Origin: a virus
Direction: 5' to 3' (one strand)
DNA length: 35,119 bases
UHGV virus genome: UHGV-0196339
Within the stretch, counting starts at the first letter, position 1. Every line of letters begins with the position of its first letter. This document shows, piece after piece, positions 1-35,119 of the stretch. The notes beneath the pieces were generated by a model that saw nothing but the letters and a program-made list of their open reading frames with translations, was not told the origin of the DNA and ran no database searches. The translations under genes were made by a program, and so were the position numbers.

Positions 1-9
1 GTGGTTGAA

Positions 10-477
10 TTATTGTTTAATGGCGTTTTCTATCCATGTCGCCAAATTGTTCTTGATATCGCTATAAGCGTCGTTAAAGTTAGGTTCATATACGAGTGGT
101 TTAATTACTCGATCGCCTCGCTTAAATGTAAATTGGTCGAAAGGATTCGGTCCTTTTGTCCCATAGCCGTTACGAGGGCATTTCAGTCGATGAATATAAA
201 TACCCACCACAGCCTTACCCTCTTTCCAGGCTCTTTCGATCTCATACTTGACCCATGGGCGATTAGCCGTTTGACTCCCGATCAGTACTACTAAGCAGGA
301 TTTGCCATTTAAGCTCTGATTAATCCAATTCTTCACGCCCTGCTCAGTTCGTTTAATTTGTTCCCAAGTATTTGGGCTGACCGGTTCATCCCCCTCCAGC
401 ACTCCCATGTTACGAATCTGCTGTACCCGCATAACATCGTTATCAAAGTGAAAGCTGTAAAATACCTTACGTTTCAT
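10..477 (-). CDS. thsB: Thoeris ThsB, TIR-domain protein
   Basis: 155 aa. N-terminal RKVFYSFHFDND, LVVLIGSQTANRPWVKYEI and KGPNPFD blocks match the ThsB TIR family. ATG lies 2 nt after the thsA stop, with an AGGAGG SD inside the thsA 3' end. AT-rich. Confidence 0.88.
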   Translation of the reverse strand: MKRKVFYSFHFDNDVMRVQQIRNMGVLEGDEPVSPNTWEQIKRTEQGVKNWINQSLNGKSCLVVLIGSQTANRPWVKYEIERAWKEGKAVVGIYIHRLKCPRNGYGTKGPNPFDQFTFKRGDRVIKPLVYEPNFNDAYSDIKNNLATWIENAIKQ

Positions 478-479
478 AT

Positions 480-1946
480 CTAACCTCCTAGTTTCTTTAA
501 AATTTCTAAAACTTTCATTTCGATATTTGCCCGATTAGCAGAGAGATCTGCAAGCTGAGCAACTTCCTTTTCCAACCAAGGGTACCGGACAAAATGTTTA
601 CTTGGATCCGTCAGCATCTCGTCAGCTAGTTCCTTGGCCATATAACCAGTGACGCCAAGTGGAAGCACGACAACCCCTGTTTCCTGAGCAATTTGAAACT
701 CCCTTCGGACCCCATCAGCATTAACGATTCGACCATCATGGAGTTTATTCCCAAAAAGGAATATAGCGATTCCAGAAAGACCAATCATACGCTGCCGATA
801 TTCGTCCCATAGCTCGCTCAGGGCTTTATCGTTTGATGAGTGTTGAGGGAATGGCCGCATGATAAGTTGCTCTTCTGAGTACTTATCAGGCTTAGAATAA
901 ATGGCTTCAAGAGCTCCGTTGATGACCGCACTACCAATACCCCATCCAAACCCATTGACAACTCGATAGCCATTCTTCACCAAAGATGACGAAAGTATGT
1001 GTACAAAGTTTAGTGCTTCCTGTTTGTCCCAAGCGCCATACTCTTCTGCACTACCAGATATAAATATGGTCTTCTTGAGGAAGCGACTCTCAATCTCTTT
1101 CAATATAAGTGGAATATCATCGTACTCGTTTACTAATACAGCCTGAATGCCAAAACGGAGCAAATCGCGAATATGATGTTCTTGCCTACGCTGCCTATAC
1201 ATAGCGCCAGCTTCATCTTCATTTCCTTGCGGCAGAGAGGGTTCCTTACGAAGAAAGCAGTAGTGTCTACGACGATGCTTCTCCGGAACATGCAATCGGC
1301 TCAATATGTAATCAAGATTAGGATCAGTAAAACTGAAGCCAATAAATAAGAATGTCTTAGAAATCAAATCTCCACTCAATGCTGTAACAAACCCCTCATG
1401 GGTCTTGTAGTACTGCTCATACTGAGCTTTATAAAGTATGGCGTCACCTGGCGAGCTAACATCACCATGCATTTTGTAAACAACAGCATCTCGTTTAGGA
1501 CGAGTGGAAATAAGATCATCGGTTCTGCGTTTAATATCTGCGACACGGTAGTTTTCTTTGAGACTATCTTCAATCAAAGTGTCATAGTTGGTTGTCCAAT
1601 AAGTTCTAATGGGTAGTCTAGCAAGGATTTTATGGGCTTCGGAAGGTTCCGCTTGCTCCGAGAATTCCTCTAGGATTTTTCTAGCTAAACCAGTTGAGCT
1701 GTTGTTCTTGTTGACATGGTATTGTGCAACCGAAATTAAGTCGTGCTCTAGCTCAACAGAAAGGCCTAATTCTTCAGCAATTTCACGCAGCAGTTCACTC
1801 CAATTAACGAAGCCGCTGGTTCTAGATAGGCCCGCACCAGCAAAAACGGCGGCAACCCCTTCTTCGAGATCCTTCACATAAGTCCTGATAAAAGCTTCAA
1901 CTTCAGCCGAAAACTGAACACTCATATTTTTAGACAATCCGGTCAA
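480..1946 (-). CDS. thsA: Thoeris ThsA, SIR2 (NADase) + SLOG domain protein
   Basis: 488 aa. SIR2 motifs FAGAGLS, TTNYD, YKMHGD, FIGFSFTDPNLDYILSR. C-terminal SLOG-like region (FISGSAEEYG, GFGWGIGS). Operon partner of thsB. Confidence 0.9.
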   Translation of the reverse strand: MTGLSKNMSVQFSAEVEAFIRTYVKDLEEGVAAVFAGAGLSRTSGFVNWSELLREIAEELGLSVELEHDLISVAQYHVNKNNSSTGLARKILEEFSEQAEPSEAHKILARLPIRTYWTTNYDTLIEDSLKENYRVADIKRRTDDLISTRPKRDAVVYKMHGDVSSPGDAILYKAQYEQYYKTHEGFVTALSGDLISKTFLFIGFSFTDPNLDYILSRLHVPEKHRRRHYCFLRKEPSLPQGNEDEAGAMYRQRRQEHHIRDLLRFGIQAVLVNEYDDIPLILKEIESRFLKKTIFISGSAEEYGAWDKQEALNFVHILSSSLVKNGYRVVNGFGWGIGSAVINGALEAIYSKPDKYSEEQLIMRPFPQHSSNDKALSELWDEYRQRMIGLSGIAIFLFGNKLHDGRIVNADGVRREFQIAQETGVVVLPLGVTGYMAKELADEMLTDPSKHFVRYPWLEKEVAQLADLSANRANIEMKVLEILKKLGG

Positions 1947-2338
1947 AAGATAGACATAAACTTCTTACCACAAACTAACCTTTGTAGTTCTATACACCGC
2001 TTTTACGCTGTGCTTTAGTATCCAAATGGATTCATTACTACTGGGGTCAGTACCTATTGAGTAAGTAGGTAGAAAGCCATTACTAGCTCCAATACTCGCT
2101 AAGTATATGAGGCAATTAGGTGGTATTTTCAAGTTCACCGAGCCTGATACAGGGCCATAGGAATAAATAGTCACATTTTCGTAGCTCTTTTCCACTATTG
2201 GTAGTTAAATAATTACTTTCACTTTATCGCTCAAAGCGTACTCTCAGGTTTATTGCTTTTTAGTTACATAAACCGTCAGTTAGAGTTTGTACCTGTACAA
2301 CCTAGAATAACGGTAGCAACACGTTTGGGGAGGTCGCA

Positions 2339-2599
2339 ATGTTCCGTTGTCCACTTTGTGGTGCATCTGCCCGTATCCGCACCAGTCGTCCGGAAAATGA
2401 TTCAAACACTGTACGACAAAAGTATTACCAGTGTAATAACTTAGAATGCGGCGTATGCTTCTCAACACTGGAAGCTTTTCATAAGTTCACATCAAAACAC
2501 ACCTCCTGCGTTCACTCTTCAGGGGATATTCCGTGGCATGAGCTGCCAGCTTCACACAAGGGAAACAATCAGATGAGTTTGCCTTTACCTCAGAATTAA
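2339..2599 (+). CDS. ogr: Ogr/Delta-type zinc-finger late-gene transcription activator
   Basis: 86 aa, MFRCPLCG...ARIRTSR...YYQCNNLECG: C2C2 zinc-finger pattern as in P2 Ogr. GGAGG SD upstream. Confidence 0.9.
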   Translation: MFRCPLCGASARIRTSRPENDSNTVRQKYYQCNNLECGVCFSTLEAFHKFTSKHTSCVHSSGDIPWHELPASHKGNNQMSLPLPQN

Positions 2600-2687
2600 C
2601 AAGCAGAATTGCCGGAGTAGCAAAAAAGCGATAGATTACGCGCGGGTGCCTTTCGGCTGATGGTCGGAGGGAATACCCGAAGGCCAG

Positions 2688-2924
2688 ATGTGGAAAGGCC
2701 CCGGAAAAACATCTCTGTTTAACCGAGGCCCTAACCGCATTACCTTGACAAGTGAAAGGTTAGCGCCTCTCCGGAAAAGGAGCAAGTGCTATGTCGCAAA
2801 AATCGCTTACGGCCATCACGTTCTGCGTGACGGCAATCCTCATCATCTGGATGCTGCACGGTTCGCTGTGCGAAATACGGATGAGCTTCTGGGGAGCGGA
2901 GTTTGCGGCGTTCTTACAGTGTAA
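2688..2924 (+). CDS. mok-like overlapping reading frame (modulator of killing) of the hok locus
   Basis: 78-aa ORF starting upstream of hok and overlapping it in another frame, the arrangement known for hok/mok/sok loci. No independent sequence support. Confidence 0.3.
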   Translation: MWKGPGKTSLFNRGPNRITLTSERLAPLRKRSKCYVAKIAYGHHVLRDGNPHHLDAARFAVRNTDELLGSGVCGVLTV

Positions 2925-2931
2925 GCAGTAA
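2791..2931 (+). CDS. hok: Hok/Gef-family type I toxin (small membrane peptide)
   Basis: 46 aa, MSQKSLTAITFCVTAILIIWMLHGSLCEIRMSFWGAEFAAFLQCKQ: N-terminal TM helix, then SLCEIR and E-x-AAF motifs as in Hok/Gef. AAAAGGAG SD at 2775-2782. Too short for the ORF track. Confidence 0.7.
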   Translation: MSQKSLTAITFCVTAILIIWMLHGSLCEIRMSFWGAEFAAFLQCKQ

Positions 2932-3020
2932 GGAAACCGCGACGGGGGAGCAATCCCCCGTCAATCGGTTGCCAAGGTAAGGTCGATAAGGCACCCTATC
3001 TCATAGAGATGAATAACAAA

Positions 3021-3052
3021 CCCGCAGCGTAAAAACTGCGGGGTTTCTTTTT
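3021..3052 (+). terminator. Rho-independent terminator of the hok transcript
   Basis: Hairpin CCCGCAG-cgtaaaaa-CTGCGGG followed by TTTCTTTTT. Confidence 0.5.
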
Positions 3053-3120
3053 GGAACTCTCACTAGCTAGTGTACCGTTAGCGGCACATAATGCTCGCAC
3101 AACAAACCAGTTAAAAGAGA

Positions 3121-3516
3121 TTACTCAGCATTCTCCTGCTTCCATTGCCGGATCATTTCATCGGTAACATCACTCTCATAACATACCACGTCATACCCTC
3201 CAGTACGGCTATATGCACTGCGTCCACCACATCTACTACCATTCCTTGCATGATTATAAGGACACGCACAATTGCCTGGATAAGATTCAATGGATTCTTT
3301 AATTATTTCTTTCTTGATCTGAGCATCTGACTTTCCTTTTGCTGCATACCCACTAAAAGATACCAAACAAAGGCAGATTGCCATTAATAAACCACATCGC
3401 ATACCGATACGCCCTATTACTAACCAATCATAGCCCACATCATAAAATCGAGATGAGGAGTACAACACCTTTAACAAGAAGGTGCCATCACGATAATATG
3501 TCGTGCAATTCATCAA
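3121..3516 (-). CDS. Hypothetical Cys-rich secreted or membrane-anchored protein (att-proximal cargo)
   Basis: 131-aa ORF. Internal Met at 3402 is followed by a signal-peptide-like segment MRCGLLMAICLCLVSFSGYAA and a Cys-rich domain (GNCACPY...RCGG...VVCY). The true start may be 3402, which has a better SD. AT-rich. Confidence 0.5.
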   Translation of the reverse strand: MMNCTTYYRDGTFLLKVLYSSSRFYDVGYDWLVIGRIGMRCGLLMAICLCLVSFSGYAAKGKSDAQIKKEIIKESIESYPGNCACPYNHARNGSRCGGRSAYSRTGGYDVVCYESDVTDEMIRQWKQENAE

Positions 3517-3870
3517 AAAAAAGATCTATATCAAAGAGATAGAGTTATTATCAGTGCTGCAGACATCAGCATTCGAGGCAGCAGAAAAACAGTTAATCTA
3601 ACGAATTTGTATTTTCTCAGGATGTTGATTAAAAAAGATAGATTAGCGCAGACACCTTTTGGCGGGTGGTAGGAGGAAAAATGAAGTTGAGTGGGAAGAT
3701 CCCAGAAAAAATTTTGATTTAACCAAGGCCCTAGTTCAACATGCGAAATACAGATTAGTTGCAGGAGAGTTCTGCTTCACGCTTAGAGCTTCAACAGACG
3801 TGCACTATCATTGTTTCTGCATATCGCCACATCATCGCCACTTTACCGCCATTGCACAAAATACAAATAC

Positions 3871-3895
3871 AAAAAAACCACCCGAAGGTGGTTTC
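3871..3895 (-). terminator. Intrinsic terminator (minus strand) downstream of int and the att core
   Basis: Hairpin CCACC-ttcg-GGTGG followed by a 7-T run on the minus strand. Confidence 0.4.
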
Positions 3896-3937
3896 ACGAC
3901 ACTGCTTATTGCTTTGATTTTATTCTTATCTTTCCCA

Positions 3938-3992
3938 TGGTACCCGGAGCGGGACTTGAACCCGCACAGCGCGAACGCCGAGGGATTTTAAA
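3938..3992 (-). other. Phage attachment core: 3'-terminal ~55 nt of a tRNA-Leu(UAA) gene (anticodon loop to CCA), not a complete tRNA
   Basis: Minus-strand sequence TTTAAAATCCCTCGGCGTTCGCGCTGTGCGGGTTCAAGTCCCGCTCCGGGTACCA matches the 3' part of enterobacterial tRNA-Leu (leuZ-like, recalled from memory). The 5' half (D-arm, acceptor 5' strand) is absent. Confidence 0.7.
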
Positions 3993-4098: not shown

Positions 4099-5100
4099 TT
4101 ACCCTCTATTATCAAAAGGATTCAATTCAACAGCAGCCTCTAAATGACCTGGAGCAAAATGCGCATAACGCATAGTCATTTTTATATCGCTATGCCCCAG
4201 TATTTTTTGCAACACAAGAATATTTCCGCCCCGCATCATAAAATGACTGGCAAACGTGTGACGTAGCACATGAGTTAATTGCCCATCAGGAAGCTCGATC
4301 TTCGCTCTCTTAATTGCAGCGTCAAAAGCCTCATAACATGGTGAAAATAGCGCTCCTCGTTTTTTAGGAAGCATAGCCTGCAATTGAGGTGAAATAGGTA
4401 CAGTGCGGTTCTTCTTTCCTTTAGTTTTAACAAATGTGATTCGACCGGGCAGTACTTGAGATTGCTTTAATCCTTCTGCTTCACTCCACCGAGCACCAGT
4501 CGCAAGCCCAATACGGACAACAACCCCCAAATCTTTATTCCGTGACTCATCACACGAAATCAGAAGGCGTTCAATCTCATCTACATACAGAAACGCCAGT
4601 TCCTTTTCTTCCTCACGAAACTTGCGAATACCAGTCAGAGGGTTTTCACCAGACCACTCCCCAAGGCGCTTCAGTTCGGCAAAAACAGCATGTAGATATG
4701 ACTGCTCGCGATTAACGGTTGCTTCACTAAGTTTTTTCTTCCCCTTGGGATTCCATTCTCCTGATAGCCTTCTTTCCCGATAAGTAGCAAACATATTTTT
4801 GTCAAACTGAGAAGCAAATGGATCTCCCAGCCTAGAACAAATCGCCTCAAGTTTGACTTTGCGCTCTGCACCAGAGGACAAGGTTTTACCGTACATCTCA
4901 AACCAACGAGCAATCAACTCAGAAAGACGAGGACCAGAACCATCTTGAAACTCGTCTCCAACTCTACTATTCATTAAACGGCGCTCATAAGAGAGCGCCT
5001 CACTTTTTGTCGCAAACTGTTTACGAATGCGTTTTCCCGATGCCCCGTAGGGATAACATTCGCAAAGCCATTTACCTGATGGAATCTTACGAACCGACAT
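4099..5100 (-). CDS. int: Tyrosine recombinase / phage integrase
   Basis: 333 aa. C-terminal catalytic region with HVLRHTFAS, GHSDIKMTMRYAH (R-H-R-Y family). Adjacent to the tRNA-derived att core. Confidence 0.95.
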   Translation of the reverse strand: MSVRKIPSGKWLCECYPYGASGKRIRKQFATKSEALSYERRLMNSRVGDEFQDGSGPRLSELIARWFEMYGKTLSSGAERKVKLEAICSRLGDPFASQFDKNMFATYRERRLSGEWNPKGKKKLSEATVNREQSYLHAVFAELKRLGEWSGENPLTGIRKFREEEKELAFLYVDEIERLLISCDESRNKDLGVVVRIGLATGARWSEAEGLKQSQVLPGRITFVKTKGKKNRTVPISPQLQAMLPKKRGALFSPCYEAFDAAIKRAKIELPDGQLTHVLRHTFASHFMMRGGNILVLQKILGHSDIKMTMRYAHFAPGHLEAAVELNPFDNRG

Positions 5101-5105
5101 TTTAG

Positions 5106-5453
5106 TTACTTATCACATAAATCAAATGCAGCCTTAGTGACATCCCCCAGATTCTTTTTTAACCCTGGGGCGGCATCATTATCTAGCCAAAATGGATTAT
5201 TGTTATCTAACGGTAACGCACCAAATGTTTTACCTTTTATTCGAGCCAAACCTGTAAGCGCATATAACTTATTATCGTCAAAATTCATCACATAAGGATT
5301 ACCATCAAGACACTGTAATTGAACCTCATCAGTATTAAATGGCCATACCCCATTGAAACTCTCACGTTCAATAGTTTTAAAAGGCATTGCGACGGCAGAA
5401 AAAGAAAACATAAATAAAAAAGTAACTAATAGTTGAATCTTTTTTACTTTCAT
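5106..5453 (-). CDS. Hypothetical secreted (signal-peptide) protein, lysogeny-operon cargo
   Basis: 115 aa. N-terminal MKVKKIQLLVTFLFMFSFSAVA signal peptide, two Cys in the mature part. GAGGT SD. 5-nt gap to int, AT-rich. Confidence 0.6.
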   Translation of the reverse strand: MKVKKIQLLVTFLFMFSFSAVAMPFKTIERESFNGVWPFNTDEVQLQCLDGNPYVMNFDDNKLYALTGLARIKGKTFGALPLDNNNPFWLDNDAAPGLKKNLGDVTKAAFDLCDK

Positions 5454-5482: not shown

Positions 5483-6133
5483 TTACAAATTAAAAAACAT
5501 CCTAGAAATGGCACCGCCTACCAAAACCCCTACGCAGATAAAGAATATTATTTCTTTTGGATAAAGTCGGATTAATTCTGAAGCACGAAGTCGGACTTCT
5601 GGTAAGGTCGAATTCTCTGTGTTGCTTGATACCGATTGTTGCTCTAACCACGACAATGCAGACTGTAACTGAGAACGAGTAAGATCGTTTAAACGTCCTG
5701 TACCGAAATTGATATGGCAATACCGCAGAAGTTTTTGTCGAAGTCCACAGTCTTCACTGTTACGTAGTAATAAACTTACAAGAGTCTTACAGGCATCATG
5801 ATCTTTACATCGCTCAAGCATTGCATGCAGAAAACTCTCCGCTGTTTTATATTGATTTACTGTCATATCATCAATACCAGCTACACCAATCTCCGCATGT
5901 ACTTTTTGCCAAATAATAAACGCTTCAGTATTGCTAGCTTCTGCAATAGCAGCAACCAAGCTATTTAGCTCCTTACGCTGAGCCTTAAGCAAAGGGCGAT
6001 CGTCATCATCATTATTCGAAGGGATTGCGATATTGACGATATGAGAACCATCATATCGATCTATCTGAATATTCTTTTCGTGAAAATCACGCCCAGCAAC
6101 GCGATTGTTTGAACCGTTTGAGTTGACGGCCAT
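5483..6133 (-). CDS. Hypothetical tail-anchored membrane protein, lysogeny-operon cargo
   Basis: 216 aa. C-terminal hydrophobic helix IIFFICVGVLVGGAISRMFF. N-terminus SNNRVAGRDFHE repeats the repressor C-terminal motif. GGGAGG SD, 15-nt gap to the repressor stop. Confidence 0.6.
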   Translation of the reverse strand: MAVNSNGSNNRVAGRDFHEKNIQIDRYDGSHIVNIAIPSNNDDDDRPLLKAQRKELNSLVAAIAEASNTEAFIIWQKVHAEIGVAGIDDMTVNQYKTAESFLHAMLERCKDHDACKTLVSLLLRNSEDCGLRQKLLRYCHINFGTGRLNDLTRSQLQSALSWLEQQSVSSNTENSTLPEVRLRASELIRLYPKEIIFFICVGVLVGGAISRMFFNL

Positions 6134-6148
6134 GTCACCTCCCTACTA

Positions 6149-6553
6149 TCACCTACCCTTAGTTTCGTTATAGTCACGACCAGCGATACGGTTATTACCA
6201 CCAGAAATATTTAACTCACGTCCTGATGGCTGAGTTTCCTTTTCACTGACCGCACCTTTTAAAGCCCCGATCACCGCGTTTTTCACATCTAACGAAGCTG
6301 CTCGAAAGCGAGTAATCAACTCCTGCTCATCATCGTTATAAGTTTCAGGTGAGTGAATTCCCAACACAACATACTGAACATCAAGGCCAAAACGAGACAG
6401 CGCTGCCAAATACGCAGCATCAGGAAAGCTATCTCCTTTCTCATATCTAAGCTGAGTTAGCTTTTTGACTCCACCAATGTCGCTCATAGCAACTTGACTA
6501 AGCCCCAATCTTTCCCTTTCCTCACGCAACCGCTGACCAATATCATTTTTCAT
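6149..6553 (-). CDS. XRE-family HTH repressor (cI-like immunity repressor)
   Basis: 134 aa. N-terminal HTH (LGLSQVAMSDIGGVKKLTQLRYEKG). Divergent from the early operon. First gene of the repressor-cargo-int operon. Confidence 0.75.
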   Translation of the reverse strand: MKNDIGQRLREERERLGLSQVAMSDIGGVKKLTQLRYEKGDSFPDAAYLAALSRFGLDVQYVVLGIHSPETYNDDEQELITRFRAASLDVKNAVIGALKGAVSEKETQPSGRELNISGGNNRIAGRDYNETKGR

Positions 6554-6628
6554 ACAAAAACCTTGACAAGTATCTTTTTTGATACCAAAATAATTTCACG
6601 AGCTATTAGATGATCACAATATACCACT
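6554..6628. promoter_or_regulatory. Divergent early/repressor promoter-operator region
   Basis: 75-nt intergenic region between divergent genes. TTGACA at 6564-6569. Palindrome GTATC-tttttt-GATAC at 6571-6586 is a candidate operator. Confidence 0.4.
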
Positions 6629-6835
6629 ATGAAACAAGTTCTTCACGATACCAGATCACGCATTCCGCGTAACACCGCCACAGGTCCAAGACTGGCACTT
6701 CGGCTGTCCCTCGAGGAGCGAGCCGTCATTGATGAAATGGCAGCTAAAGAGCAACGCTCATCCTCTAACATGGCGCGCATGATCTTCCTTCGCGGCCTAG
6801 AGCTAACCCAGAAAGAACAAAACAAATCTTCCTGA
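6629..6835 (+). CDS. Small ribbon-helix-helix-like early regulator (Cox/Cro-position protein)
   Basis: 68 aa. LALRLSLEERAVIDEMAAKEQRSSSNMARMIFLRGLE resembles an RHH beta-alpha-alpha fold. First ORF of the rightward early operon. No clear SD. Confidence 0.45.
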   Translation: MKQVLHDTRSRIPRNTATGPRLALRLSLEERAVIDEMAAKEQRSSSNMARMIFLRGLELTQKEQNKSS

Positions 6836-6851
6836 TCAGGAGGCTAGTGGG

Positions 6852-7084
6852 ATGTCAGGTATAACCATCAATATCAATGTGAATGCCCCCTATGTATCCC
6901 TGCAGAAATATGCAGAGATAACAGGTATCCCTCCGAGGTCGACGAACGCCTGATTACCACTATCGACAAACATCGTTCGGAAAAGGATGCACACCACATC
7001 TACCTCACTGACGGCACTTACTTCTGCGCCACCAACGTGGCGCGAGTAAATCTTATCCGACAGGTACAGGAGCCACGCAGATGA
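6852..7084 (+). pseudogene. Frame-disrupted HTH/excisionase-like early gene (frameshift near 6930-6945)
   Basis: ATG at 6852 gives MSGITININVNAPYVSLQKYAEITGIPPRS then stop at 6951. The +2 frame continues open as DERLITTIDKHRSEKDAHHIYLTDGTYFCATNV... to a TGA overlapping the next ATG at 7081, with no in-frame start of its own. Confidence 0.35.
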
Positions 7085-7347
7085 CCATTCTGGACTACAT
7101 CGCTACTCATCCGGGGTGTAGCGGCGGAGAGATCGCCGCAGCACTGAATACCCCAACCACAGCCATTAATGCTGAGTTACGCCGACTTTGGCGCGGCGGC
7201 TTAGTCATCAGAACAAACCGCAGCACAGGTGGTCGCGCTCGCAAAACAGGAGGCCAAGCTTCTTACCACGTAAACCCGATGCCGTTCGGGTGTAGCAATC
7301 CACTTACTCACATGTTTAACCAGCTACTGAAGGAAGCCAGAGCATGA
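7081..7347 (+). CDS. Small winged-helix-like DNA-binding protein (early operon)
   Basis: 88 aa, AGGAG SD. ILDYIATHPGCSGGEIAAALNTPTTAINAELRRLWRGGLV resembles a wHTH. Confidence 0.55.
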   Translation: MTILDYIATHPGCSGGEIAAALNTPTTAINAELRRLWRGGLVIRTNRSTGGRARKTGGQASYHVNPMPFGCSNPLTHMFNQLLKEARA

Positions 7348-7643
7348 GCACCATCAACCACCAGAAGCTACGCGAACTGGCATTTGCCCTGCAACGAATG
7401 GCAACGCCTCAAAAATTACTGGCATTTCGCGCAATGCTCTCGCCGTCTGCTGTGCTGGCACTGCTGGATGAGCTGGAGCACGCCAGAACCACGGCTCCTG
7501 CCATTCGCCTGACGCTCCATCATGAAATCGCTGATTTCTGCGCGACGTTGGAGGCGCCGGGCGAACCGGAAACGCCGGAAGCAATACAGCAAGAGCTGCT
7601 GCAACGCATTGACAAGGTTTTTGATTTTTTTCTGAACCAGTAA
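7344..7643 (+). CDS. Hypothetical early protein
   Basis: 99 aa, AAGGAAG SD, ATGA overlap with the preceding gene. Confidence 0.5.
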   Translation: MSTINHQKLRELAFALQRMATPQKLLAFRAMLSPSAVLALLDELEHARTTAPAIRLTLHHEIADFCATLEAPGEPETPEAIQQELLQRIDKVFDFFLNQ

Positions 7644-7734
7644 GAAACCAGAACATGCACACACAAAAAAACCGCTTGCCATGCCTCAATAGGTCAGGTT
7701 ACATTTCCGCTGCACCTCATAAAACGGGTGCCGG

Positions 7735-7920
7735 GATTCTCAACCCGACACAGAGCAAAGCGCATAACCGCGCAAGCGGTTTTTTTGTGCGTACTGTATT
7801 GCCACGTCTTTTTCGCGTCAGAATTATGGCGGGGCGTACGGGGCCGACTTTGGTCGGGCCGGATTCTTTGCTCTCCGGTGTTGAGAACCCTGTACGTCTC
7901 GCCACCCCGAGATTCTCAAC
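7735..7920. repeat. Three copies of GATTCTCAAC-like motif (two direct, one inverted) flanking a terminator
   Basis: GATTCTCAACCCGACACAGAGCAAAG at 7735-7760. Its imperfect reverse complement at 7866-7889. GATTCTCAAC again at 7911-7920. Confidence 0.4.
7766..7787 (+). terminator. Rho-independent terminator within the early region
   Basis: AACCGC-gcaa-GCGGTT followed by TTTTTT. Confidence 0.5.
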
Positions 7921-7965
7921 TCTGGATGGTGAGTTATTTCTATCACCGAGCAAAGAGGCCACACC

Positions 7966-8196
7966 ATGGCAAACCGCAAACAGCACCGCGCTATCGCGGA
8001 GCGTCGTCACATCCAGACTGAAATCAACCGCAGACTTTCCCGCGCATCACGCGTCGCGCAAATCATGCACATCAATATGCTGCATGAGCGCAGCCACGCA
8101 CTATCAAACATTTATTCCGCCTCTGTTTTCAGCTATCTGGCGGATGATCTGCACGAGCTTCAACAGCTCATCCAGCAGCAAAACAAACTCCATTAA
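7966..8196 (+). CDS. Hypothetical small helical protein (early region)
   Basis: 76 aa, AGAGG SD 8 nt upstream, compositionally protein-like. Confidence 0.5.
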   Translation: MANRKQHRAIAERRHIQTEINRRLSRASRVAQIMHINMLHERSHALSNIYSASVFSYLADDLHELQQLIQQQNKLH

Positions 8197-8268
8197 TTCC
8201 TGTTCCGGGCCTTTCCTGCACCTTGCGGCGGGAGGCCTTCGCACATCTGTAACAAGAGGATTGCCGCA

Positions 8269-8634
8269 ATGATTCTCGCCAACGACTTTCTTGAATACCT
8301 GCTCAACACAGAACGTGATCTTGCCGCTCGCGTGCGTGATCGTTATGACATGTACCTGAAATCCCTGCCTGTACCGCAGCTCGCTGACGGAAAGATTGTT
8401 ATTGAAGATCGCTACATGATTGACAGCCACGAGGGAAATTACAGGCTTTACCGCATTGAAGGTGGCACCCCGTCCGTTATTGGCATTTACCAGCGCCCAT
8501 CCTCTGCAATCGTCGATGTGATTGCCGACAGCATCCGCATCACACATCGCCATGCCGACACAGAAGACACCGTGCTGGAAATTCAGCGGCTGGCTACAGT
8601 CTGCCGCGACACCCTGAATGGCATGACGAAGTAA
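8269..8634 (+). CDS. Hypothetical protein immediately upstream of the replication gene
   Basis: 121 aa, AGAGGA SD. Stop lies 6 nt before the gene A start. Confidence 0.55.
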   Translation: MILANDFLEYLLNTERDLAARVRDRYDMYLKSLPVPQLADGKIVIEDRYMIDSHEGNYRLYRIEGGTPSVIGIYQRPSSAIVDVIADSIRITHRHADTEDTVLEIQRLATVCRDTLNGMTK

Positions 8635-8640
8635 ATCACT

Positions 8641-11406
8641 ATGACGGCAGAGTACATCAGGGACTGGCAACAACCGCGCCACGCAGTGGGGCGTGAAGGA
8701 ACGGGGATCCCCGCTCCTGAATCCGCGCTTTCCTCCTGGCTGGATGCCTACCGGGCAGAGAACGAGCGCCGCCAGGAAATGGCTGATGCGGCGTTCTCCG
8801 CCACGCCGCTGGGCAACCTGATTAATAAAAGCCTGGACGCACAGGAAAAACAGGACAAAACCATCACACTGGCAGGAGACGCCAGAAAACAGGCACGTGG
8901 CGCGGTGGATGAAGCCATGGCCTCGCTGCGCCTGCTGCCGACCTATCTGCGCGATCCGCTTATTCGCCACCTCTCCTTCCTGCGCAAAAAACAGGAAGCC
9001 GATCGTCAGAAAGGAAAAAACGCCAGGCAGGCAGAACGCTATGCGCGTGGGACCCTGCGCAAAATATTCGAACGTCTGGAGCGCACCGATCACCGCTGGC
9101 TGACACCGGGTTATCGCTCCCTTGCCGGACGCGAACGCCTGGACAATTTGCTTTACCTGCCGCAGCTCAACAAACACCAGATACAGACGCTGGCCACCAT
9201 GACGGCGGCGATGTTCAGCAGCACCTTCGAAAAACTCTGCGATGGCTTTGGCGCGACCGATGGCGAGCTGACCATGGATGTAACCCTGAAGGCGTATCAG
9301 ATGCTGGCCCGCATAGCGTTACACCTGCACGCCATGCCTCCACATTATGACGCACTGACAACAGACAAAGACCGGAGGAACGAACCGGACACGGAGCTGC
9401 TGCCGGGCGCAATCCTTCGCCTGACCTGTGCGGAATGGTGGAAACGCAAACTGTGGCTGTTACGTTGCGAGTGGCGGGAAGAACAACTCCGCGCCGCCTG
9501 TCTGGTTTCCAGAAAGACATCACCCTATCTGAGCCAGGACGCGTTAAGCGAGTTTCGCGCACAGCGCGAGAAAACACGCGATTTCCTGAAAAGTTTCATG
9601 CTGGAAAACGAAGACGGGTTCACGATTGATCTCGAGACAGTGTATTACGCGGGAGTAAGTAACCCGGTTCACCGTAAGGCAGAAATGATGGCCACCATGA
9701 AGGGGCTGGAACTTCTGGCCGAAGCCCGTGGCGACAGAGCGGTGTTTCTGACTGTCACCTGCCCGTCAAAATACCACGCAACAACGGAGAACGGTCATCC
9801 GAATCCCAAATGGAACGGGGCCACTATGCGCGACTCCAGCGATTACCTGGTTAACACGTTTTTTGCAGCGGTCCGCAAAAAACTGAACCGCGACGGCCTG
9901 CGCTGGTATGGCATCCGCACGGTGGAGCCTCATCATGACGGCACGGTGCACTGGCACATGATGGTTTTTGCTCATCCTGACGAGATTGAAACCATCGTGT
10001 CCCACGTCTGCGATATTGCCATTCAGGAAGACCGCCACGAGCTGGGCGATGACATAACTCCGCGTTTTAAGGCGGAGTACGTCGACGGCTCAAAAGGCAC
10101 ACCAACCAGCTATATCGCGACCTACATCGGAAAAAACCTGGACAGCCGCGCCGTGGATGGCATCGACCCGAAAACGGGCAAACCACGCGTTGACCACGAA
10201 ACCGGAAAATCAATGGCCGAGAGCGTGGAGCGCGCCATCGGCTGGGCGCGCCTTCACCGGGTCCGCCAGTTCCAGTTCTTTGGCATCCCCTCCCGTCAGG
10301 TGTGGCGTGAACTGCGCCGCCTTGCCAGCCAGATGGCACGCAACCCGGAAGGCCCGCAACGGCTGAAGGATGACGCAATGGATGCGGTACTCGCTGCCGC
10401 TGATGCCGGGTGTTTTGCCTCCTACATTGAAAAACAGGGTGGCGTACTTGTTCCACGCAAGGACTACCTGATTCGCACCGCCTACGACCTCGCAGATGAG
10501 CTGAACGATTACGGCGAACAGAGCGTACAGATTTACGGGATCTGGTCACCACTCATCGGGGAATCCTCCCGTGTGTGCACGCACCCGGATAACTGGAAGC
10601 TGGTAAGACGTAAACCGGAAGCGGAAGACAGCACCCGCGAAAATGATTTTGACCTTCAGGGCGGCCCTGCCGCCCCTTGGACTCGTGGCAATAACTGTCC
10701 CCGTGTACAGGAAACGGACAACAACGGGACAGAACAGCAGGAAGAACGGCCAGCACTGTGGCCGCAGCTTCCTGACGGCGTTGATGTGGATGAATGGATG
10801 CGCTCACTGAAACGGCACGAACGCCGGGCGCTGATGCGTTCGCTTCGTGACAAACAGGCAAAAAACAGCAGTGATGAAATGCAGAGCTGGACACAGAGCC
10901 GCAAACAGCAGCGGCCTTTGCCTGATAACCACGAATTACTCGCTAAAGAATGGCGGGAATCTGCCGAATCTCTCGGCCTGCATATCGGTGAACAGCAGAT
11001 GCAGCACCTGTTACGAGGCGGCAGTCTGTACGTTGACGGCAGCATCATTGCACCGCAGGGATTTGAAATTGTACGCAAACCAGATACCCGACCGGACAGC
11101 CGAATCACGCAGCTCTGGCAGCGCCTGAGCCGTAATCACGGCGTAAACAGCACGGAAATCCGCCATAACCCGGTTTCCAGCTATCTGAAACAGCTCGGGG
11201 CATCAGACCCTGAAGCCGCTGCACGCCTGGCATCCACAATTCAGCAGGACCAGAGCACCATGAAAACTCCCGTTACCGTGCTTTCTGACATGCTGCGCGC
11301 CATCCGTGACGCAGAGCACGCACAGAGAATCAATGAAACCACTGAACGCGCACGTCACAAGGCGGGTCTGTTGCAGGACAAAGGCAATAGCGAGAAGAAA
11401 AAATAA
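8641..11406 (+). CDS. A: Gene A-type rolling-circle replication initiation endonuclease
   Basis: 921 aa. TVTCPSKYH, VEPHHDGTVHWHMMVF (HUH motif) and YIATYIGKN (catalytic Tyr motif) match P2 gpA. Long low-complexity C-terminal extension. Confidence 0.9.
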   Translation: MTAEYIRDWQQPRHAVGREGTGIPAPESALSSWLDAYRAENERRQEMADAAFSATPLGNLINKSLDAQEKQDKTITLAGDARKQARGAVDEAMASLRLLPTYLRDPLIRHLSFLRKKQEADRQKGKNARQAERYARGTLRKIFERLERTDHRWLTPGYRSLAGRERLDNLLYLPQLNKHQIQTLATMTAAMFSSTFEKLCDGFGATDGELTMDVTLKAYQMLARIALHLHAMPPHYDALTTDKDRRNEPDTELLPGAILRLTCAEWWKRKLWLLRCEWREEQLRAACLVSRKTSPYLSQDALSEFRAQREKTRDFLKSFMLENEDGFTIDLETVYYAGVSNPVHRKAEMMATMKGLELLAEARGDRAVFLTVTCPSKYHATTENGHPNPKWNGATMRDSSDYLVNTFFAAVRKKLNRDGLRWYGIRTVEPHHDGTVHWHMMVFAHPDEIETIVSHVCDIAIQEDRHELGDDITPRFKAEYVDGSKGTPTSYIATYIGKNLDSRAVDGIDPKTGKPRVDHETGKSMAESVERAIGWARLHRVRQFQFFGIPSRQVWRELRRLASQMARNPEGPQRLKDDAMDAVLAAADAGCFASYIEKQGGVLVPRKDYLIRTAYDLADELNDYGEQSVQIYGIWSPLIGESSRVCTHPDNWKLVRRKPEAEDSTRENDFDLQGGPAAPWTRGNNCPRVQETDNNGTEQQEERPALWPQLPDGVDVDEWMRSLKRHERRALMRSLRDKQAKNSSDEMQSWTQSRKQQRPLPDNHELLAKEWRESAESLGLHIGEQQMQHLLRGGSLYVDGSIIAPQGFEIVRKPDTRPDSRITQLWQRLSRNHGVNSTEIRHNPVSSYLKQLGASDPEAAARLASTIQQDQSTMKTPVTVLSDMLRAIRDAEHAQRINETTERARHKAGLLQDKGNSEKKK

Positions 11407-11586: not shown

Positions 11587-12708
11587 ATGGGCGACTTAGG
11601 TGGTATTCAGTCAGATTTAGCCCAACTAGTTAGACTGGTAATAACTGAACAGTATGATGACGTTCGGTTATATGTCGCTCGCTTGGTGCGTAAATATCGG
11701 GAAACTATGCCTGCTCTATCCGAGCAGCTTGATCTTTATCTACGAAATAAACCGCAAAAGCCTGCACAAAGCCTGCGTAAGGTTACCGCACCAAAACAAG
11801 CGCTGCCTCAAACCATGCCTGTGGACGAGGAGTCAAGGCTTACCTTGCTTAAAGCACCAAATGAAAAGATTGTGAGCAAACCTCTACTGTCCAGTCAGAT
11901 AGAAGACTCACTGGATCAAATTATTCTTGAGCGGAAGCACATCGATCGCCTCAAGACTCTCGGCTTACAACCAACACGCTCTGCCATTTTTGTTGGCCCT
12001 CCGGGTGTAGGTAAAACACTTACGGCAAGCTGGTTAGCTCAGAAATTAGGGGTTCCTTTTTACGTTCTTGATTTAACGGCAGTAATGAGCAGCTATCTGG
12101 GCAAAAGCGGAAATAACCTTCGGGCAGCTCTAGATTTTGCGAAGAAAGGGCCGTGCGTTCTTCTGTTAGATGAAATTGATTCAATCGCCAAAAAGAGAAG
12201 TGATGATTCTGATGTTGGAGAATTAAAAAGACTTGTTACAGTGATACTCCAGGAGGTTGACGAATGGCCGTCTTCTAGTTTGCTACTTGCTGCAACTAAC
12301 TTCGCTGAGTTGATTGATCCAGCACTATGGAGACGTTTTGATTTAGTGCTCAATTTTGAGAAACCAGATAGCGAAAGTATTAAAGAAGCAATTAAACGCT
12401 TTTCAGGTCCCGACTACGCGATTTTTGCACGTTGGATAGATCTACTGGCTATTATGTTCAAAAATGAATCTTTTAGTAATATTGAGCGTTCTATCAACAA
12501 ATTCCGACGTTCGGTCGCTTTAGGTATTTCCTCAGATGAAGAGTTGATTGGGTCGTTCATTAAAGATGGTTTATCAGAATTAGACAGGAATGAACGTAAA
12601 GAAATTGCAGTTACTCTAAAAAGAAATTCTAAATTATCCCAGCATGCCATATCAGACTTAACCGGAGTCAGTAGGGATACAATTAGAAAATACAGTCAAA
12701 AAATGTAA
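11587..12708 (+). CDS. AAA+ ATPase with C-terminal HTH-like segment (IetA-like)
   Basis: 373 aa. Walker A GPPGVGKT, Walker B LLLDEID, sensor-1 ATN, Arg finger region WRRFD. C-terminal LSQHAISDLTGVSRDTIRKY resembles an HTH. AT-rich. Confidence 0.8.
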   Translation: MGDLGGIQSDLAQLVRLVITEQYDDVRLYVARLVRKYRETMPALSEQLDLYLRNKPQKPAQSLRKVTAPKQALPQTMPVDEESRLTLLKAPNEKIVSKPLLSSQIEDSLDQIILERKHIDRLKTLGLQPTRSAIFVGPPGVGKTLTASWLAQKLGVPFYVLDLTAVMSSYLGKSGNNLRAALDFAKKGPCVLLLDEIDSIAKKRSDDSDVGELKRLVTVILQEVDEWPSSSLLLAATNFAELIDPALWRRFDLVLNFEKPDSESIKEAIKRFSGPDYAIFARWIDLLAIMFKNESFSNIERSINKFRRSVALGISSDEELIGSFIKDGLSELDRNERKEIAVTLKRNSKLSQHAISDLTGVSRDTIRKYSQKM

Positions 12709-12731: not shown

Positions 12732-14957
12732 ATGGCGAAAACTAATTTTCTGATTGGACGCGGCGAATTATTAACCAGCGATATTCCTGGTCCTAAAAGA
12801 GTGCCCGGAAAAGCTGAGGTTTATTCTCTTTACGAATCGAAACAACGTTTATTGCCGCAAATTGCATCTACTATAGAAAATTTTGATGATTTACCCAGTC
12901 AGGCATGTCCTTATGATTATGCTGTGGCTAAGTTGACGTTGAATCCGAGCTATATTGCACGCTCTTTTTTTCCTGCAAAAATGCTTAAGTCTACCGGGTT
13001 AACGTCTATTGGCAGCAGGACGGTAAAAATTACGCCTCAAAGCTGGAAGCGAAAAGTTACTGTGTCAGAAGTAACTACGACACAAATGTTTGTTGCTGGT
13101 AAAAGAGAATCCTTCAAAGAGTTACCTCATTGGGTGTCAGGACTCAAAGAGTTTTCTGACGAAGCGATTGATTTTGCACGCATAGAACGGTTCGATGCCT
13201 ATTTACCCGAAGAGCGTATTATTACCATTGGTGAGCAGGATTCTTCGTATTTTGAGGTTGGTGTTCATTTACTGCCAGATAATGAACAAGACTTGGTTCA
13301 GCAACAATTTGTTCAGTTTGCATCAAATTTGAACATCAAAGTACATACTTCATTAGCTTTTACCGCTGGTACATTATGGTTCGTGCCAATCCAGGCCGAT
13401 AGAATTACTATTAGTAAGCTTGCGAAATTTACATTTGTACGAGTAATAAGACCGGTTCCAAGATTGCGTGGGATTAGACCAATACAAAGGAACTACGGTC
13501 CTTTAGCTCAGTGTAAATTGCCTGCTGAGGGCCCCGTATCTTCAGAAATAAAAGTTGCGATTCTTGATGGCGGTTTACCATCAGAGCACGCTATATCGCC
13601 ATGGTTAAAATCCTATAGAGTTTTGGACGATCATGCAGAGGATGATCCAGACGGTTTAGAACATGGTTTAGCTGTGTCTTCAGCCTTTTTATTTGGACCA
13701 ATAAGTAATAAATCGGAAGCGAAAAGACCATACTCTTATATTGATAACTTAAGAGTTTTGGACAACAAGACCTGCCAAGAAGATCCGCTGGAACTATATC
13801 GAAATTTGGGCTTTATTGAAGAGGTATTGTTGTCTCGCCAGTATCAGTTTATCAATCTAAGTTTAGGTCCAGACCTACCAATTGAAGATACGGAAGTTCA
13901 TGCATGGACTTCCGTTATTGATGATTTGTTAAGTGATGGTGAAACATTAATGACTGTTGCTGTTGGCAACAATGGAGAAATGGATCGCAAGTCTGGTAAT
14001 GCAAGAATTCAAGTACCAGCCGATTGCGTTAATGCTCTTGCTGTTGGTGCTTGTGATACAGTTAATGATACGGAATGGAAACGAGCACCATATAGCGCCA
14101 TTGGGCCAGGCAGAAGTCCTGGCGTGATGAAACCGGATTTAGTTGCGTTTGGTGGTGACACAGACGAGTACTTTCATGTTTTAGGTAAAGGTAAGAAGCC
14201 TGTAATCATACCCCAGCTAGGAACAAGCTTTGCCTCTCCTTACGCCTTACGAGCAGCTGTTGGTGTTCGGGCAATTTTAGGGAACGATTTGAGCCTACTA
14301 GCAATCAAAGCTTTGTTAATTCATGCGTCAAAACAGCTTGATCATCCTTGTACAGAAGTTGGCTGGGGAAAACTTCCTGAAGACTTGAACGACATTATAG
14401 TCAGCCCTGATGGTGTTGCCCGTATCGTCTACCAAGGTGAATTGAAACCAGGAAAATACTTACGCGCTCCTCTTCCAATACCTGAAGGTGGCTTGAAAGG
14501 TAGAATAAACTTAGCGGCAACTTTCTGTTATGCAACAACCACTGATCCACAAGACCCAGCTTCCTATACAAAAGCTGGTTTGGAAGTGACATTCCGGCCA
14601 AATGATTCAAAAATCAAAGACGGAAAACAAAATGCTGAAACCAAGGGATTCTTTGAACTGGCCAAATATTCAACTGAAAGTGAGCGACGTTCTGACATGG
14701 GCAAATGGGAGACCGTCTTACATAATTCGAAGAACATGCTCGGTTCAACTCTAAAAAATCCTGTATTTGACATTCATTATAACGCTCGTGAGGCCGGTGC
14801 AAGCATAGCCAGCCATAAGGCAGAAAAAATCAAGTATGCTCTTATAATTACCATTAAGGCATCAAAGCACCAAGACCTGTATAACGAAATTTTACGTACT
14901 TATAATCAGGTGCTCGTGCCAATTCAACCGCAAACATCAATTCCTATTCGTTCGTAA
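12732..14957 (+). CDS. S8-family subtilisin-like serine peptidase with N- and C-terminal extensions (IetS-like)
   Basis: 741 aa. Subtilase motifs: Asp in VAILDGG, His in LEHGLAV, oxyanion Asn in VGNNG, Ser in GTSFASP. AAGGAG SD 5 nt upstream, 23 nt after the ATPase stop. Confidence 0.85.
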   Translation: MAKTNFLIGRGELLTSDIPGPKRVPGKAEVYSLYESKQRLLPQIASTIENFDDLPSQACPYDYAVAKLTLNPSYIARSFFPAKMLKSTGLTSIGSRTVKITPQSWKRKVTVSEVTTTQMFVAGKRESFKELPHWVSGLKEFSDEAIDFARIERFDAYLPEERIITIGEQDSSYFEVGVHLLPDNEQDLVQQQFVQFASNLNIKVHTSLAFTAGTLWFVPIQADRITISKLAKFTFVRVIRPVPRLRGIRPIQRNYGPLAQCKLPAEGPVSSEIKVAILDGGLPSEHAISPWLKSYRVLDDHAEDDPDGLEHGLAVSSAFLFGPISNKSEAKRPYSYIDNLRVLDNKTCQEDPLELYRNLGFIEEVLLSRQYQFINLSLGPDLPIEDTEVHAWTSVIDDLLSDGETLMTVAVGNNGEMDRKSGNARIQVPADCVNALAVGACDTVNDTEWKRAPYSAIGPGRSPGVMKPDLVAFGGDTDEYFHVLGKGKKPVIIPQLGTSFASPYALRAAVGVRAILGNDLSLLAIKALLIHASKQLDHPCTEVGWGKLPEDLNDIIVSPDGVARIVYQGELKPGKYLRAPLPIPEGGLKGRINLAATFCYATTTDPQDPASYTKAGLEVTFRPNDSKIKDGKQNAETKGFFELAKYSTESERRSDMGKWETVLHNSKNMLGSTLKNPVFDIHYNAREAGASIASHKAEKIKYALIITIKASKHQDLYNEILRTYNQVLVPIQPQTSIPIRS

Positions 14958-28173: not shown

Positions 28174-28665
28174 TCAGACACGAGAAAAAACATTTCCCAC
28201 TGTTTCATATGCTGAGCTTGCTGTTTTCTGGAAATCACCCAGAAGATCTCCGAAGGAGGATGACTGCAGGCGCTCCCGCAAATCCTCATCACAGCGTTCA
28301 AGGGTCAGTGAAAACTCTATCTTTTTCGCCTTACCGTAGCGATCAAACTCGGAACGGGTCGTATTCGTTTCGGTCAGGACATACATGCCGTAAATCTGCC
28401 CGACGCCATCAATCAAAGGCCAGGGACGTCCTGTATACGCCTGCGTGGTCAGCAGCGACAGCGACACTTCGCCACCTGTAATTTCAGGATAAAGCACACC
28501 AGAAAGCACAATGCGATCATCGCCTGCCCCGATATACTGCCAGCTTGCTGAACGGTTAACGCGTTCATTTTTCACATGTCGCCAGCTTTTATTTTGCTGT
28601 AACTGCTGATGCGGCAATGTGCGCAGCTCAAAAACAAACATGCCGTAGATCATCATCATGTCCAT
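28174..28665 (-). CDS. U: Tail protein U
   Basis: 163 aa. MMMIYGMFVFELRTLPHQQLQQNKSWRH resembles the P2 U N-terminus. Last gene of the minus-strand tail operon. Confidence 0.8.
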   Translation of the reverse strand: MDMMMIYGMFVFELRTLPHQQLQQNKSWRHVKNERVNRSASWQYIGAGDDRIVLSGVLYPEITGGEVSLSLLTTQAYTGRPWPLIDGVGQIYGMYVLTETNTTRSEFDRYGKAKKIEFSLTLERCDEDLRERLQSSSFGDLLGDFQKTASSAYETVGNVFSRV

Positions 28666-28671
28666 GACTCC

Positions 28672-31515: not shown

Positions 31516-32004
31516 GCCAGCTAACCACTTCGCCGGGCGTCATCATGAAGATTTCGGCGGGCGACCAGTTAAAAATGGCGGCAATATCCGCCACCAGATC
31601 TTCGATGCGCTCAAAGCACACCAGGGTGATTACGCTGCCGTCTCCTGCACGCTCTTCGCGCCAGAGTCTGGCTCGCTCATAAAATTTACAGCCACAGCGC
31701 ACAACTGAATAAAATCGCGTGACGACATTTTTTTAATCATCACTTCATCCAGTCGTGGCGAGGTCACGCGAGGCAACAGCGTGAACATGGTATCCGCTTT
31801 CAGGTTCAACACATCAGAAAGCGACAGACCACGCAGAGATCCAGCCTGCTCAATAGCCCCGGTGATTTCCACATACGTGATTTTTTCGCCACCGCGCTCA
31901 ATTGGTCGGGCCAGTTTTACGCCACGTTCGACAGCCATATCCTCACCTGCCGTCACATCATCCGCCACGGCGTTATTCTGGGTTTCAGTATTGATGTTTT
32001 TCAT
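31466..32004 (-). CDS. Tail assembly chaperone E+E' (-1 programmed frameshift product)
   Basis: The -1 frame is open from about 31702 to 31466 and overlaps the E 3' end. Slippery heptamer A_AAT_TTT on the minus strand (plus-strand 31681-31687). The E' frame ends inside T, as in P2. Confidence 0.5.
31630..32004 (-). CDS. E: Tail assembly chaperone E
   Basis: 124 aa, AAGGAG SD, between the tube and tape-measure genes. Confidence 0.75.
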   Translation of the reverse strand: MKNINTETQNNAVADDVTAGEDMAVERGVKLARPIERGGEKITYVEITGAIEQAGSLRGLSLSDVLNLKADTMFTLLPRVTSPRLDEVMIKKMSSRDFIQLCAVAVNFMSEPDSGAKSVQETAA

Positions 32005-32059
32005 CAGTTGTCTCCTTTTCAGTCAGAGGCGACGCACCGCGCCGCCTGCATATTACTTA

Positions 32060-32572
32060 TCAGCCAAGCCCAAGCGCGGAACGGATGCGATCGGGCACAA
32101 TGTCCTTGCCGTCCTTCCGGTAGATGTGGTTCAGCAGGTCGATTTCCCACAGCGGACGATCGTTAACGCTCAGCTTGTAGTAGGTGTTTTTGACAGCGTA
32201 AGTGTGTGATGTGGCTTCGCCCTGTTTGGCTTCCCCCATATCAATTTCCGTCACACGCCCGCGCATCTCGATTTCATACAGATCACTTTCTGCATCGGTG
32301 TAGTATTCACCCGCAAAACGCAGCAACGTGCCGTCAATCGTGCCGCCATATTTAAGGAACAGCTCACGGACTGCCCCCCCCATGACAAAACTCGCATCAA
32401 GCGCAGAATCATCAAGACCGAGGTCGATACTCACCGCCCCCATCATGCCACCGCCACGATAGCTTTCAGTTTTGCGCGTCAGTTTAGGTGGAGTGACGGA
32501 CGTCACCTTACCCACTTCGTTTTCACCATTCACAAACAGCGTAAAAAAGCGAAGATGTTTTGGTACAGCCAT
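32060..32572 (-). CDS. FII: Tail tube protein FII
   Basis: 170 aa, ATGA overlap with FI, position and size as P2 FII. Confidence 0.85.
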   Translation of the reverse strand: MAVPKHLRFFTLFVNGENEVGKVTSVTPPKLTRKTESYRGGGMMGAVSIDLGLDDSALDASFVMGGAVRELFLKYGGTIDGTLLRFAGEYYTDAESDLYEIEMRGRVTEIDMGEAKQGEATSHTYAVKNTYYKLSVNDRPLWEIDLLNHIYRKDGKDIVPDRIRSALGLG

Positions 32573-33756: not shown

Positions 33757-33913
33757 AGCTTCAGCCCCTTGTATCCGTTAAATGATTCGGCAACAATCAT
33801 CACCCACCACGCGCGTAATCTCACCCCTGCGCCGTTCTCCCGCCACGGCGACAACAAAAAGCAGTAACCCCCTCCGCACGCACATGCGACCATGCCGCAC
33901 AGGGAGGGAGCAG
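33757..33913. promoter_or_regulatory. Divergent late promoter region between FI (minus) and D (plus)
   Basis: 157-nt intergenic region between divergent starts. Shares CCCTTGTATC, ACAACAAAA and AACCCCCT with the P-O region. Confidence 0.4.
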
Positions 33914-35023: not shown

Positions 35024-35119
35024 ATACATTAGTTCATGCATAAGCTGGCCAGCTTACTACAAAAAGCTAGAATAAATTTGGCAATCCGCACAAATTAACA
35101 GGAGGCAGCTCAGGCCTCC

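Follow-up and report, generated by a model that had tools for sequence, protein, structure and literature searches.

Two gene remnants meeting out of frame in the early region of a P2-like phage of Escherichia coli: the probable scar of a 1,732-bp deletion

Introduction

Temperate phages give rise to spontaneous deletion mutants, such as the del and vir deletions of P2 and the b deletions of lambda. Mutants of P2 in cox are able to grow lytically and are deficient in excision. Cox in P2 and Apl in phage 186 are excision factors, also described as recombination-directionality factors (PMC3448106, PMC3936717, PMC7498355).

The locus described here lies in the early region of a phage genome of 35,119 nucleotides (UHGV-0196339), hereafter called the window. 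An earlier note on this DNA had pointed to two clashing reading frames at positions 6852-7084 and had considered a pseudogene, a sequencing error or a recoding event as possible causes. We contend that the clash is, with high probability, the scar of a 1,732-bp deletion that joined the start of a Cox-like gene to the end of a gp08-like gene out of frame.

The Cox-like gene resembles cox of P2 and apl of 186 in several respects, as its intact homologue encodes a small protein (67 aa) with an N-terminal helix-turn-helix (HTH) motif and lies where the early operon begins, facing the immunity repressor gene. In contrast to the P2 and 186 genes, it follows an Arc-like gene and occupies the second place in the operon instead of the first. 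Unlike P2 Cox, the intact homologue has no match in Pfam at E<=0.01, including Phage_Cox (PF10743), and no relevant sequence match in the PDB at E<=10, including the solved P2 Cox structure (4LHF). Compared with intact proteins of the Cox/Apl type, the first 27 residues alone survive in the window. As in the del and vir mutants of P2 and the b mutants of lambda, the proposed event is a kilobase-scale illegitimate loss of non-essential early or accessory DNA by which truncated genes are joined and the genome is otherwise left intact; unlike those mutants, the deletion in the window is known from sequence alone.

The phage genome and its early region

Judging from the genes around the locus and from database matches, the window is a P2-like phage (Peduoviridae) of the Xuanwuvirus / P88 group of E. 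coli. The prophage used for comparison is that of E. coli EC21Z-048 (NZ_CP101269.1), which measures 37 kb and lies between a tRNA-Leu gene and yecA. The window comprises exactly one genome unit in circularly permuted form, with positions 28240-35119 continuing into positions 1-3992, and a 124-bp attachment-site repeat that is found at both ends of the EC21Z-048 prophage occurs in it once, at 3869-3992. Given that the repeat occurs once and that the ends are continuous, the window represents the excised (attP) form of 35,119 bp. No tRNA gene was called in the window, although the prophage adjoins tRNA-Leu. Outside the locus under study, the genome is collinear with the EC21Z-048 prophage except for two known variable regions.

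The integrase gene (4099-5100, minus strand) and an intact, divergent gene for a CI-type immunity repressor of 134 aa (6149-6553, minus strand) are found upstream of the early operon. The latter is an HTH_XRE protein with weak Pfam matches to HTH_31, HTH_19 and HTH_3, and it is annotated as a helix-turn-helix protein or transcriptional regulator in relatives. A promoter-like site at 6563-6591 on the plus strand (TTGACA, a 17-nt spacer and CAAAAT; 10/12 in a consensus scan) may serve as the early promoter and is unaffected by the deletion. The first gene of the operon (6629-6835, plus strand) is intact and encodes an Arc-like ribbon-helix-helix repressor of 68 aa that matches phrog_3431 over 1-68 of 67 (E=1e-28); 'Arc-like repressor' is the annotation of its homologue in phage 520873. 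This gene is unannotated in the RefSeq E. coli genomes examined, in which a 45-aa ORF on the opposite strand is called instead. Downstream of the locus are an intact winged-helix gene of the MarR type (7081-7347, plus strand; Pfam MarR_2, E=2e-7), an Ead/Ea22-like gene (7344-7643, plus strand) and the gene for the replication endonuclease A (8641-11406, plus strand).

Two reading frames and two protein families

An ORF that starts at ATG 6852 and is preceded by a good ribosome-binding site (AGGAGG, 6838-6843) runs for 33 codons (MSGITININVNAPYVSLQKYAEITGIPPRSTNA) to the stop codon TGA at 6951-6953. An open stretch of 78 codons in the frame of base 7082 lies between TAG 6845 and TGA 7082-7084, the latter overlapping the ATG at 7081 of the 88-aa MarR-type gene, and within it no ATG, GTG or TTG is present before the GTG at 7037, 15 codons from the stop. 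The CCCTCC run occupies positions 6929-6934, and one base added there results in a reading frame of 77 aa. The short ORF, the second open frame lacking a usable start and the effect of a one-base change had all been described in the earlier note, and each was borne out when the sequence was read again, the last of them as a matter of arithmetic.

The 33-aa ORF matches PHROG 575 with E=7e-9, covering profile positions 2-31 of 71 only, and the downstream frame matches PHROG 3459 with E=1e-30 over profile positions 19-67 of 67. Since both pieces have strong homologues, the two-frame arrangement is not a chance pattern, and the suggestion that the downstream frame is coding sequence was well founded. 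In the hypothetical 77-aa fusion, residues 3-29 correspond to positions 2-28 of PHROG 575 and residues 29-77 to positions 19-67 of PHROG 3459.

The left remnant: a Cox-like gene

The left part of the locus (6852-6933, plus strand) is the 5' remnant of a Cox-like excisionase/repressor gene and consists of 27 codons and the first base of codon 28, or 82 nt. The ORF read from it (6852-6953, plus strand) is chimeric, with 27 native Cox-like residues followed by six residues (PRSTNA) that are read out of frame from the gp08-like remnant and then by TGA. The intact 67-aa homologue (MSGITININVNAPYVSLQKYAEITGIPLNTCKKMLADGRIIIRPKRAKMEKPEVNLVAMLKDALANS) is found in EC21Z-048, in the O26:H11 strain 11368 and in phage 520873, where it is annotated as 'DNA-binding protein' or as 'Cox-like excisionase and repressor'. 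This intact protein (WP_000014504.1, 67 aa) matches phrog_575, 'Cox-like excisionase and repressor', end to end (3-67, with profile positions 2-67 covered in intact relatives) with E=1e-27, in agreement with the previous view of the upstream ORF as a broken early gene of the HTH/excisionase type. Neither a match over the full length of PHROG 575 (about 71 positions) nor a single frame of about 67 aa is found in the window, which therefore carries a truncated PHROG 575 remnant and no member gene.

In 80 IMG/VR loci whose products are at least 66% identical to the Cox-like protein, the ORF measures 67 aa in 78 cases and 69 aa in two. The intact arrangement is also common: a query that extends over the block of Arc-like, Cox-like and DUF4761 genes is matched to at least 80% by 514 of 5,426 complete E. 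coli genomes, and in the sampled rows the Cox-like gene ('DNA-binding protein') and the DUF4761 gene are annotated under that match. The Cox-like protein has no match in NCBIfam, and the name 'Cox-like' should be read as the PHROG family label only.

A single-sequence AlphaFold model of the Cox-like protein gives the order strand-helix-helix-strand-helix, which is compatible with a winged helix followed by a C-terminal oligomerization helix, at a pLDDT of only 67.5. A Foldseek search of this low-confidence model against the PDB returned nothing at E<1, the hits being noise and mostly fusions with maltose-binding protein. According to the model, the part left in the window comprises strand 1 and the initial helix of the predicted HTH motif and ends before the recognition helix, the second strand or wing and the C-terminal helix. 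With these elements lost, the 33-aa product should be inactive and non-functional.

The right remnant: a gp08-like gene

The right part (6934-7084, plus strand) is the 3' remnant of a gene related to P88 gp08, which sets in with the third base of codon 18 and continues through codons 19-67 to the stop codon; the first 53 nt of the gene, including its start codon, are missing, as is its ribosome-binding site. The intact protein is 67 aa long (MAIKHFPVVRFTSRGREYEVDERLITT...QEPRR; P88 gp08, WP_000985157.1) and matches PHROG 3459, a family of unknown function, with E=1e-45. The 151 nt of the remnant are 100% identical to the gene of E. coli O157:H7 PV15-279 (WP_000985157.1) and 99.3% identical to that of EC21Z-048. 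Relative to P88 gp08 (YP_009113051.1) and PHROG 3459, the remnant matches residues 19-67 and shows the same stop/start overlap with the MarR-type gene; unlike P88 gp08, it is devoid of the first 17 codons, most of codon 18, the start and the ribosome-binding site. The full 67-aa ORF with its own start that characterizes PHROG 3459 is reduced in the window to positions 19-67. Having no start, the remnant is dead coding sequence, and the old overlap with the MarR-type gene is kept because that end of the gene was never touched.

In relatives, the two genes are intact and separate. The gp08-like gene is annotated in O157:H7 PV15-279, phage 569R5 and P88, and in EC21Z-048 as well as in O26:H11 11368 the Cox-like and the gp08-like genes are annotated as separate 67-aa genes. 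In the 42 of 80 IMG/VR loci that have a gp08-like gene within reach, its start lies 1,314-1,764 nt downstream of the Cox-like gene, and the two are never adjacent. This is the outcome of the alignment to homologues from related phages that had been suggested before: it brings up two separate 67-aa genes, not a single-frame gene, and these are not neighbors. As the genes are intact and separate across relatives, the window represents the derived state.

A rearrangement of another kind was seen on contig JARCCX010095394.1 of GCA_029782595.1, where a tandem duplication has led to an 87-aa chimera between a normal gp08-like gene and a normal MarR-type gene. This chimera consists of the first 28 residues of the MarR-type protein and residues 9-67 of the gp08-like protein.

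The probable deletion junction

Searches with segments of the window on both sides of the locus place the break. Positions 6600-7400, used as a query, match 1,289 complete E. coli genomes and 14 phage records; the right-side matches start at query base 335, that is, at window position 6934, in the 30 E. coli rows listed of the 1,289 and in all 14 phage records, and no complete E. coli genome covers 80% of this query. Conversely, positions 6140-6940 match 524 genomes and phage 520873, and the left-side matches end at query base 794, that is, at window position 6933, in the 30 rows listed of the 524 genomes and in phage 520873. The switch of homology partner at 6933/6934 falls inside the CCCTCC run.

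In the EC21Z-048 prophage, the two points that match at the junction are 1,732 bp apart (1969889-1971620 of NZ_CP101269.1 is missing from the window), and identity to this prophage is 99.5-99.7% on the left (6140-6933) and 99.3-99.75% on the right (6934-8100). A three-way alignment reveals no microhomology at the junction, as no base is common to both ends: the left parent reads ATCCCTC/TTAAT, the right parent GAATA/CGAGG and the window ATCCCTC/CGAGG. Since 1,732 equals 3 x 577 + 1 and is not a multiple of 3, the remnants meet out of frame; with 82 nt kept on the left and entry at the third codon position on the right, the frames are one base out of register.

The junction itself appears to be a single sighting. 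It was not found in any complete E. coli genome, searches of 185,579 representative genomes, IMG/VR and the JGI metagenomes for the exact 36-mer across it gave no hit, and for the exact 33-aa peptide there is no record in 153 billion gene positions. A cloning origin at a restriction site was also considered and rejected, since the nearby SalI site (GTCGAC, 6938-6943) belongs natively to the right-hand gene and the junction falls 4 nt before it.

Proposed origin of the junction

These comparisons establish where the breaks lie, what the two remnants derive from and that both genes are intact in relatives, and the following course of events can be proposed. The ancestor would have been essentially identical to the EC21Z-048 prophage, and a single non-homologous (illegitimate) deletion, with ends sharing no bases, would have taken 1,732 bp out of its early operon. 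This deletion would run from after base 1 of codon 28 of the Cox-like gene to before base 3 of codon 18 of the gp08-like gene, and would have taken away, in this order, the remainder of the Cox-like gene, the genes for DUF4761, a 92-aa protein and DUF4754, a 37-aa ORF that is already truncated in EC21Z-048, the gene for a 138-aa protein and the 5' end of the gp08-like gene. The DUF4761, 92-aa, DUF4754 and 138-aa genes and the 37-aa ORF all belong to PHROG families of unknown function. Ribosomes starting at 6852 would now translate 27 native codons and six nonsense codons before stopping at 6951.

The reading of the locus as one gene, put forward in the earlier note, would have a gene of about 77 aa disrupted by a single-base indel or a base-calling error, or read through by a programmed -1 frameshift. 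It draws on the fact that one base added at CCCTCC joins the frames and on the ATGA overlap at the end of the downstream frame, which is typical of coupled genes. We regard it as extraordinarily improbable, and the homology break at 6933/6934 already refutes it. The two halves are unrelated and belong to different families, and their genes are 1.3-1.8 kb apart in every relative examined, so that joining them in a 77-aa protein would create a chimera from two PHROG families. When 5.8 billion proteins were searched with this fusion, only two kinds came back, gp08-like (MAIKHF...) and Cox-like (MSGITININ...), and none of the hits returned spans both halves. An apparent hit with 99% coverage was set aside, as it actually is a chimera of a MarR N-terminus and a gp08-like C-terminus that stems from a local duplication. 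Recoding by a programmed -1 frameshift was likewise rejected: no slippery heptamer of the form X XXY YYZ is present in 6852-6951, where the only homopolymer is CCCCC at 6886, well upstream of the CCCTCC run; the local RNA fold is unremarkable (z = -2.0); and the two-frame arrangement is conserved in no relative or genome searched. The junction being a one-off, no recoding signal could have evolved there. Nor is a sequencing error supported, because miscalling a base cannot make the homology change from one partner to another. Among the three causes named at the outset, it is the pseudogene that is upheld, in the form of two remnants.

An assembly artefact would mean that the 1.7-kb segment is present in the phage and that the assembler joined two non-adjacent points. 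The absence of the junction from every other sequence set searched, with no second sighting, is in line with this. Misjoins, however, arise at repeats or shared k-mers, and the ends have no bases in common here; both flanks come from the same lineage, each being at least 99.3% identical to one prophage, and the remaining genome is collinear with it and forms one complete circle of exactly unit length. We consider an artefact unlikely, and a real deletion in the phage genome, correspondingly, very likely. Illegitimate recombination between two co-infecting P2-like phages could also have created the joint as a new mosaic boundary, given that the early regions of these phages are mosaic, that common mosaic boundaries are located nearby, inside DUF4761, and that positions 6934-7084 are closer to the O157:H7 prophage than to EC21Z-048. 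Yet EC21Z-048 alone matches both flanks at 99.3-99.8% for kilobases, so that one parent suffices, and the outcome, two truncated genes joined out of frame, would be the same either way; a joint of two phages is judged very improbable. The 1,732-bp deletion in a single lineage thus remains the preferred reading, and we see in it an ordinary, strain-specific deletion scar with a mundane cause.

Consequences for the phage

After the deletion, transcription of the early operon would still extend into the MarR-type gene and replication gene A. The promoter and the Arc-like gene are intact, as are the MarR-type gene, which has its own AGGAG (7068-7072), and all that follows it, so that early transcription and replication functions should persist; what the MarR-type gene has lost is its coupling to a translated upstream gene. 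The phage would lose the Cox-like function, which most likely consists in directing excision. Given that cox mutants of P2 grow lytically, a phage with this deletion could still multiply.

If the Cox-like protein is an excision factor, lysogens of the window phage should excise poorly. The excised circular form in which the genome was recovered sits awkwardly with the loss of the presumed excision factor. It is compatible with lytic growth, with help in trans from another protein or a co-resident prophage, or with the Cox-like protein not being an excision factor. The window phage is hence a ready-made test of whether the Cox-like protein is an excision factor. It also amounts to a naturally occurring knock-out of a run of six or seven early genes, from the Cox-like to the gp08-like gene, in an otherwise intact P2-like phage, and it hints that this block of early genes is dispensable for replication as a circle.

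For annotation purposes, the locus is best labelled as a pair of gene remnants on either side of a deletion junction and not as a frameshifted gene, a correctable error or a recoding site. Beyond its annotation and the knock-out, the case is that of an ordinary strain-specific deletion.

A possible break-point hotspot in the Cox-like gene

The Cox-like gene contains the ends of three independent rearrangements, all within about 8 nt of one another. The deletion in the window breaks after nt 82 of the gene, an in-frame 15-nt deletion in GCA_015914975.1 / SRR13147434 removes nt 67-81, and on an ENA metagenome contig (ERZ1106971) the C-terminal part is swapped wholesale from about nt 80-88. All three end points are located in the loop of a weak hairpin, GTAT-CCCTCTTA-ATAC. 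It could be speculated that the site GGTAT-CCCTCTTA-ATAC is a recurrent break point, either as a fragile site or as the target of a nuclease or recombinase, and if this were true, the scar would mark a hotspot driving module exchange in the early region of P2-like phages. We consider this very improbable and leave it as an anecdote, as larger samples show no excess of breaks there: in 60 sampled rows of the 514 matching complete E. coli genomes the common mosaic boundary lies elsewhere, and the Cox-like ORF is full length in 80 of 80 IMG/VR loci.

Other features of the window

Two accessory genes are found on the minus strand between the integrase gene and the repressor gene, one DUF2511/YebY-like (5106-5453) and the other encoding a 216-aa membrane protein (5483-6133) with a precomputed Pfam hit to Flk_N; neither matches a defence system.

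Between the Ead/Ea22-like gene and replication gene A, Rfam matches identify an isrK Hfq-binding RNA (7712-7786, plus strand; 61.9 bits) and a C4 antisense RNA (7822-7909, plus strand; 77.6 bits), both located just upstream of a 76-aa ORF (7966-8196, plus strand) that is annotated as 'derepression protein' in relatives. This region looks like a c4/antirepressor module of the P1/P7 style inside a P2-like early region, and a 205-aa ORF called mechanically at 7655-8272 is probably spurious.

The window also carries two defence systems as cargo. A Thoeris anti-phage defence pair, made up of ThsB (TIR; 10-477, minus strand, E=3e-70) and ThsA (SIR2; 480-1946, minus strand, E=6e-203), is situated between gene D and ogr, a known cargo position of P2-like phages. 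An IetA/IetS defence pair (11587-12708 and 12732-14957, plus strand; E=1e-77 and E=1e-52, respectively) lies between replication gene A and the portal gene, where EC21Z-048 has ParM/partition and RelE-type cargo.
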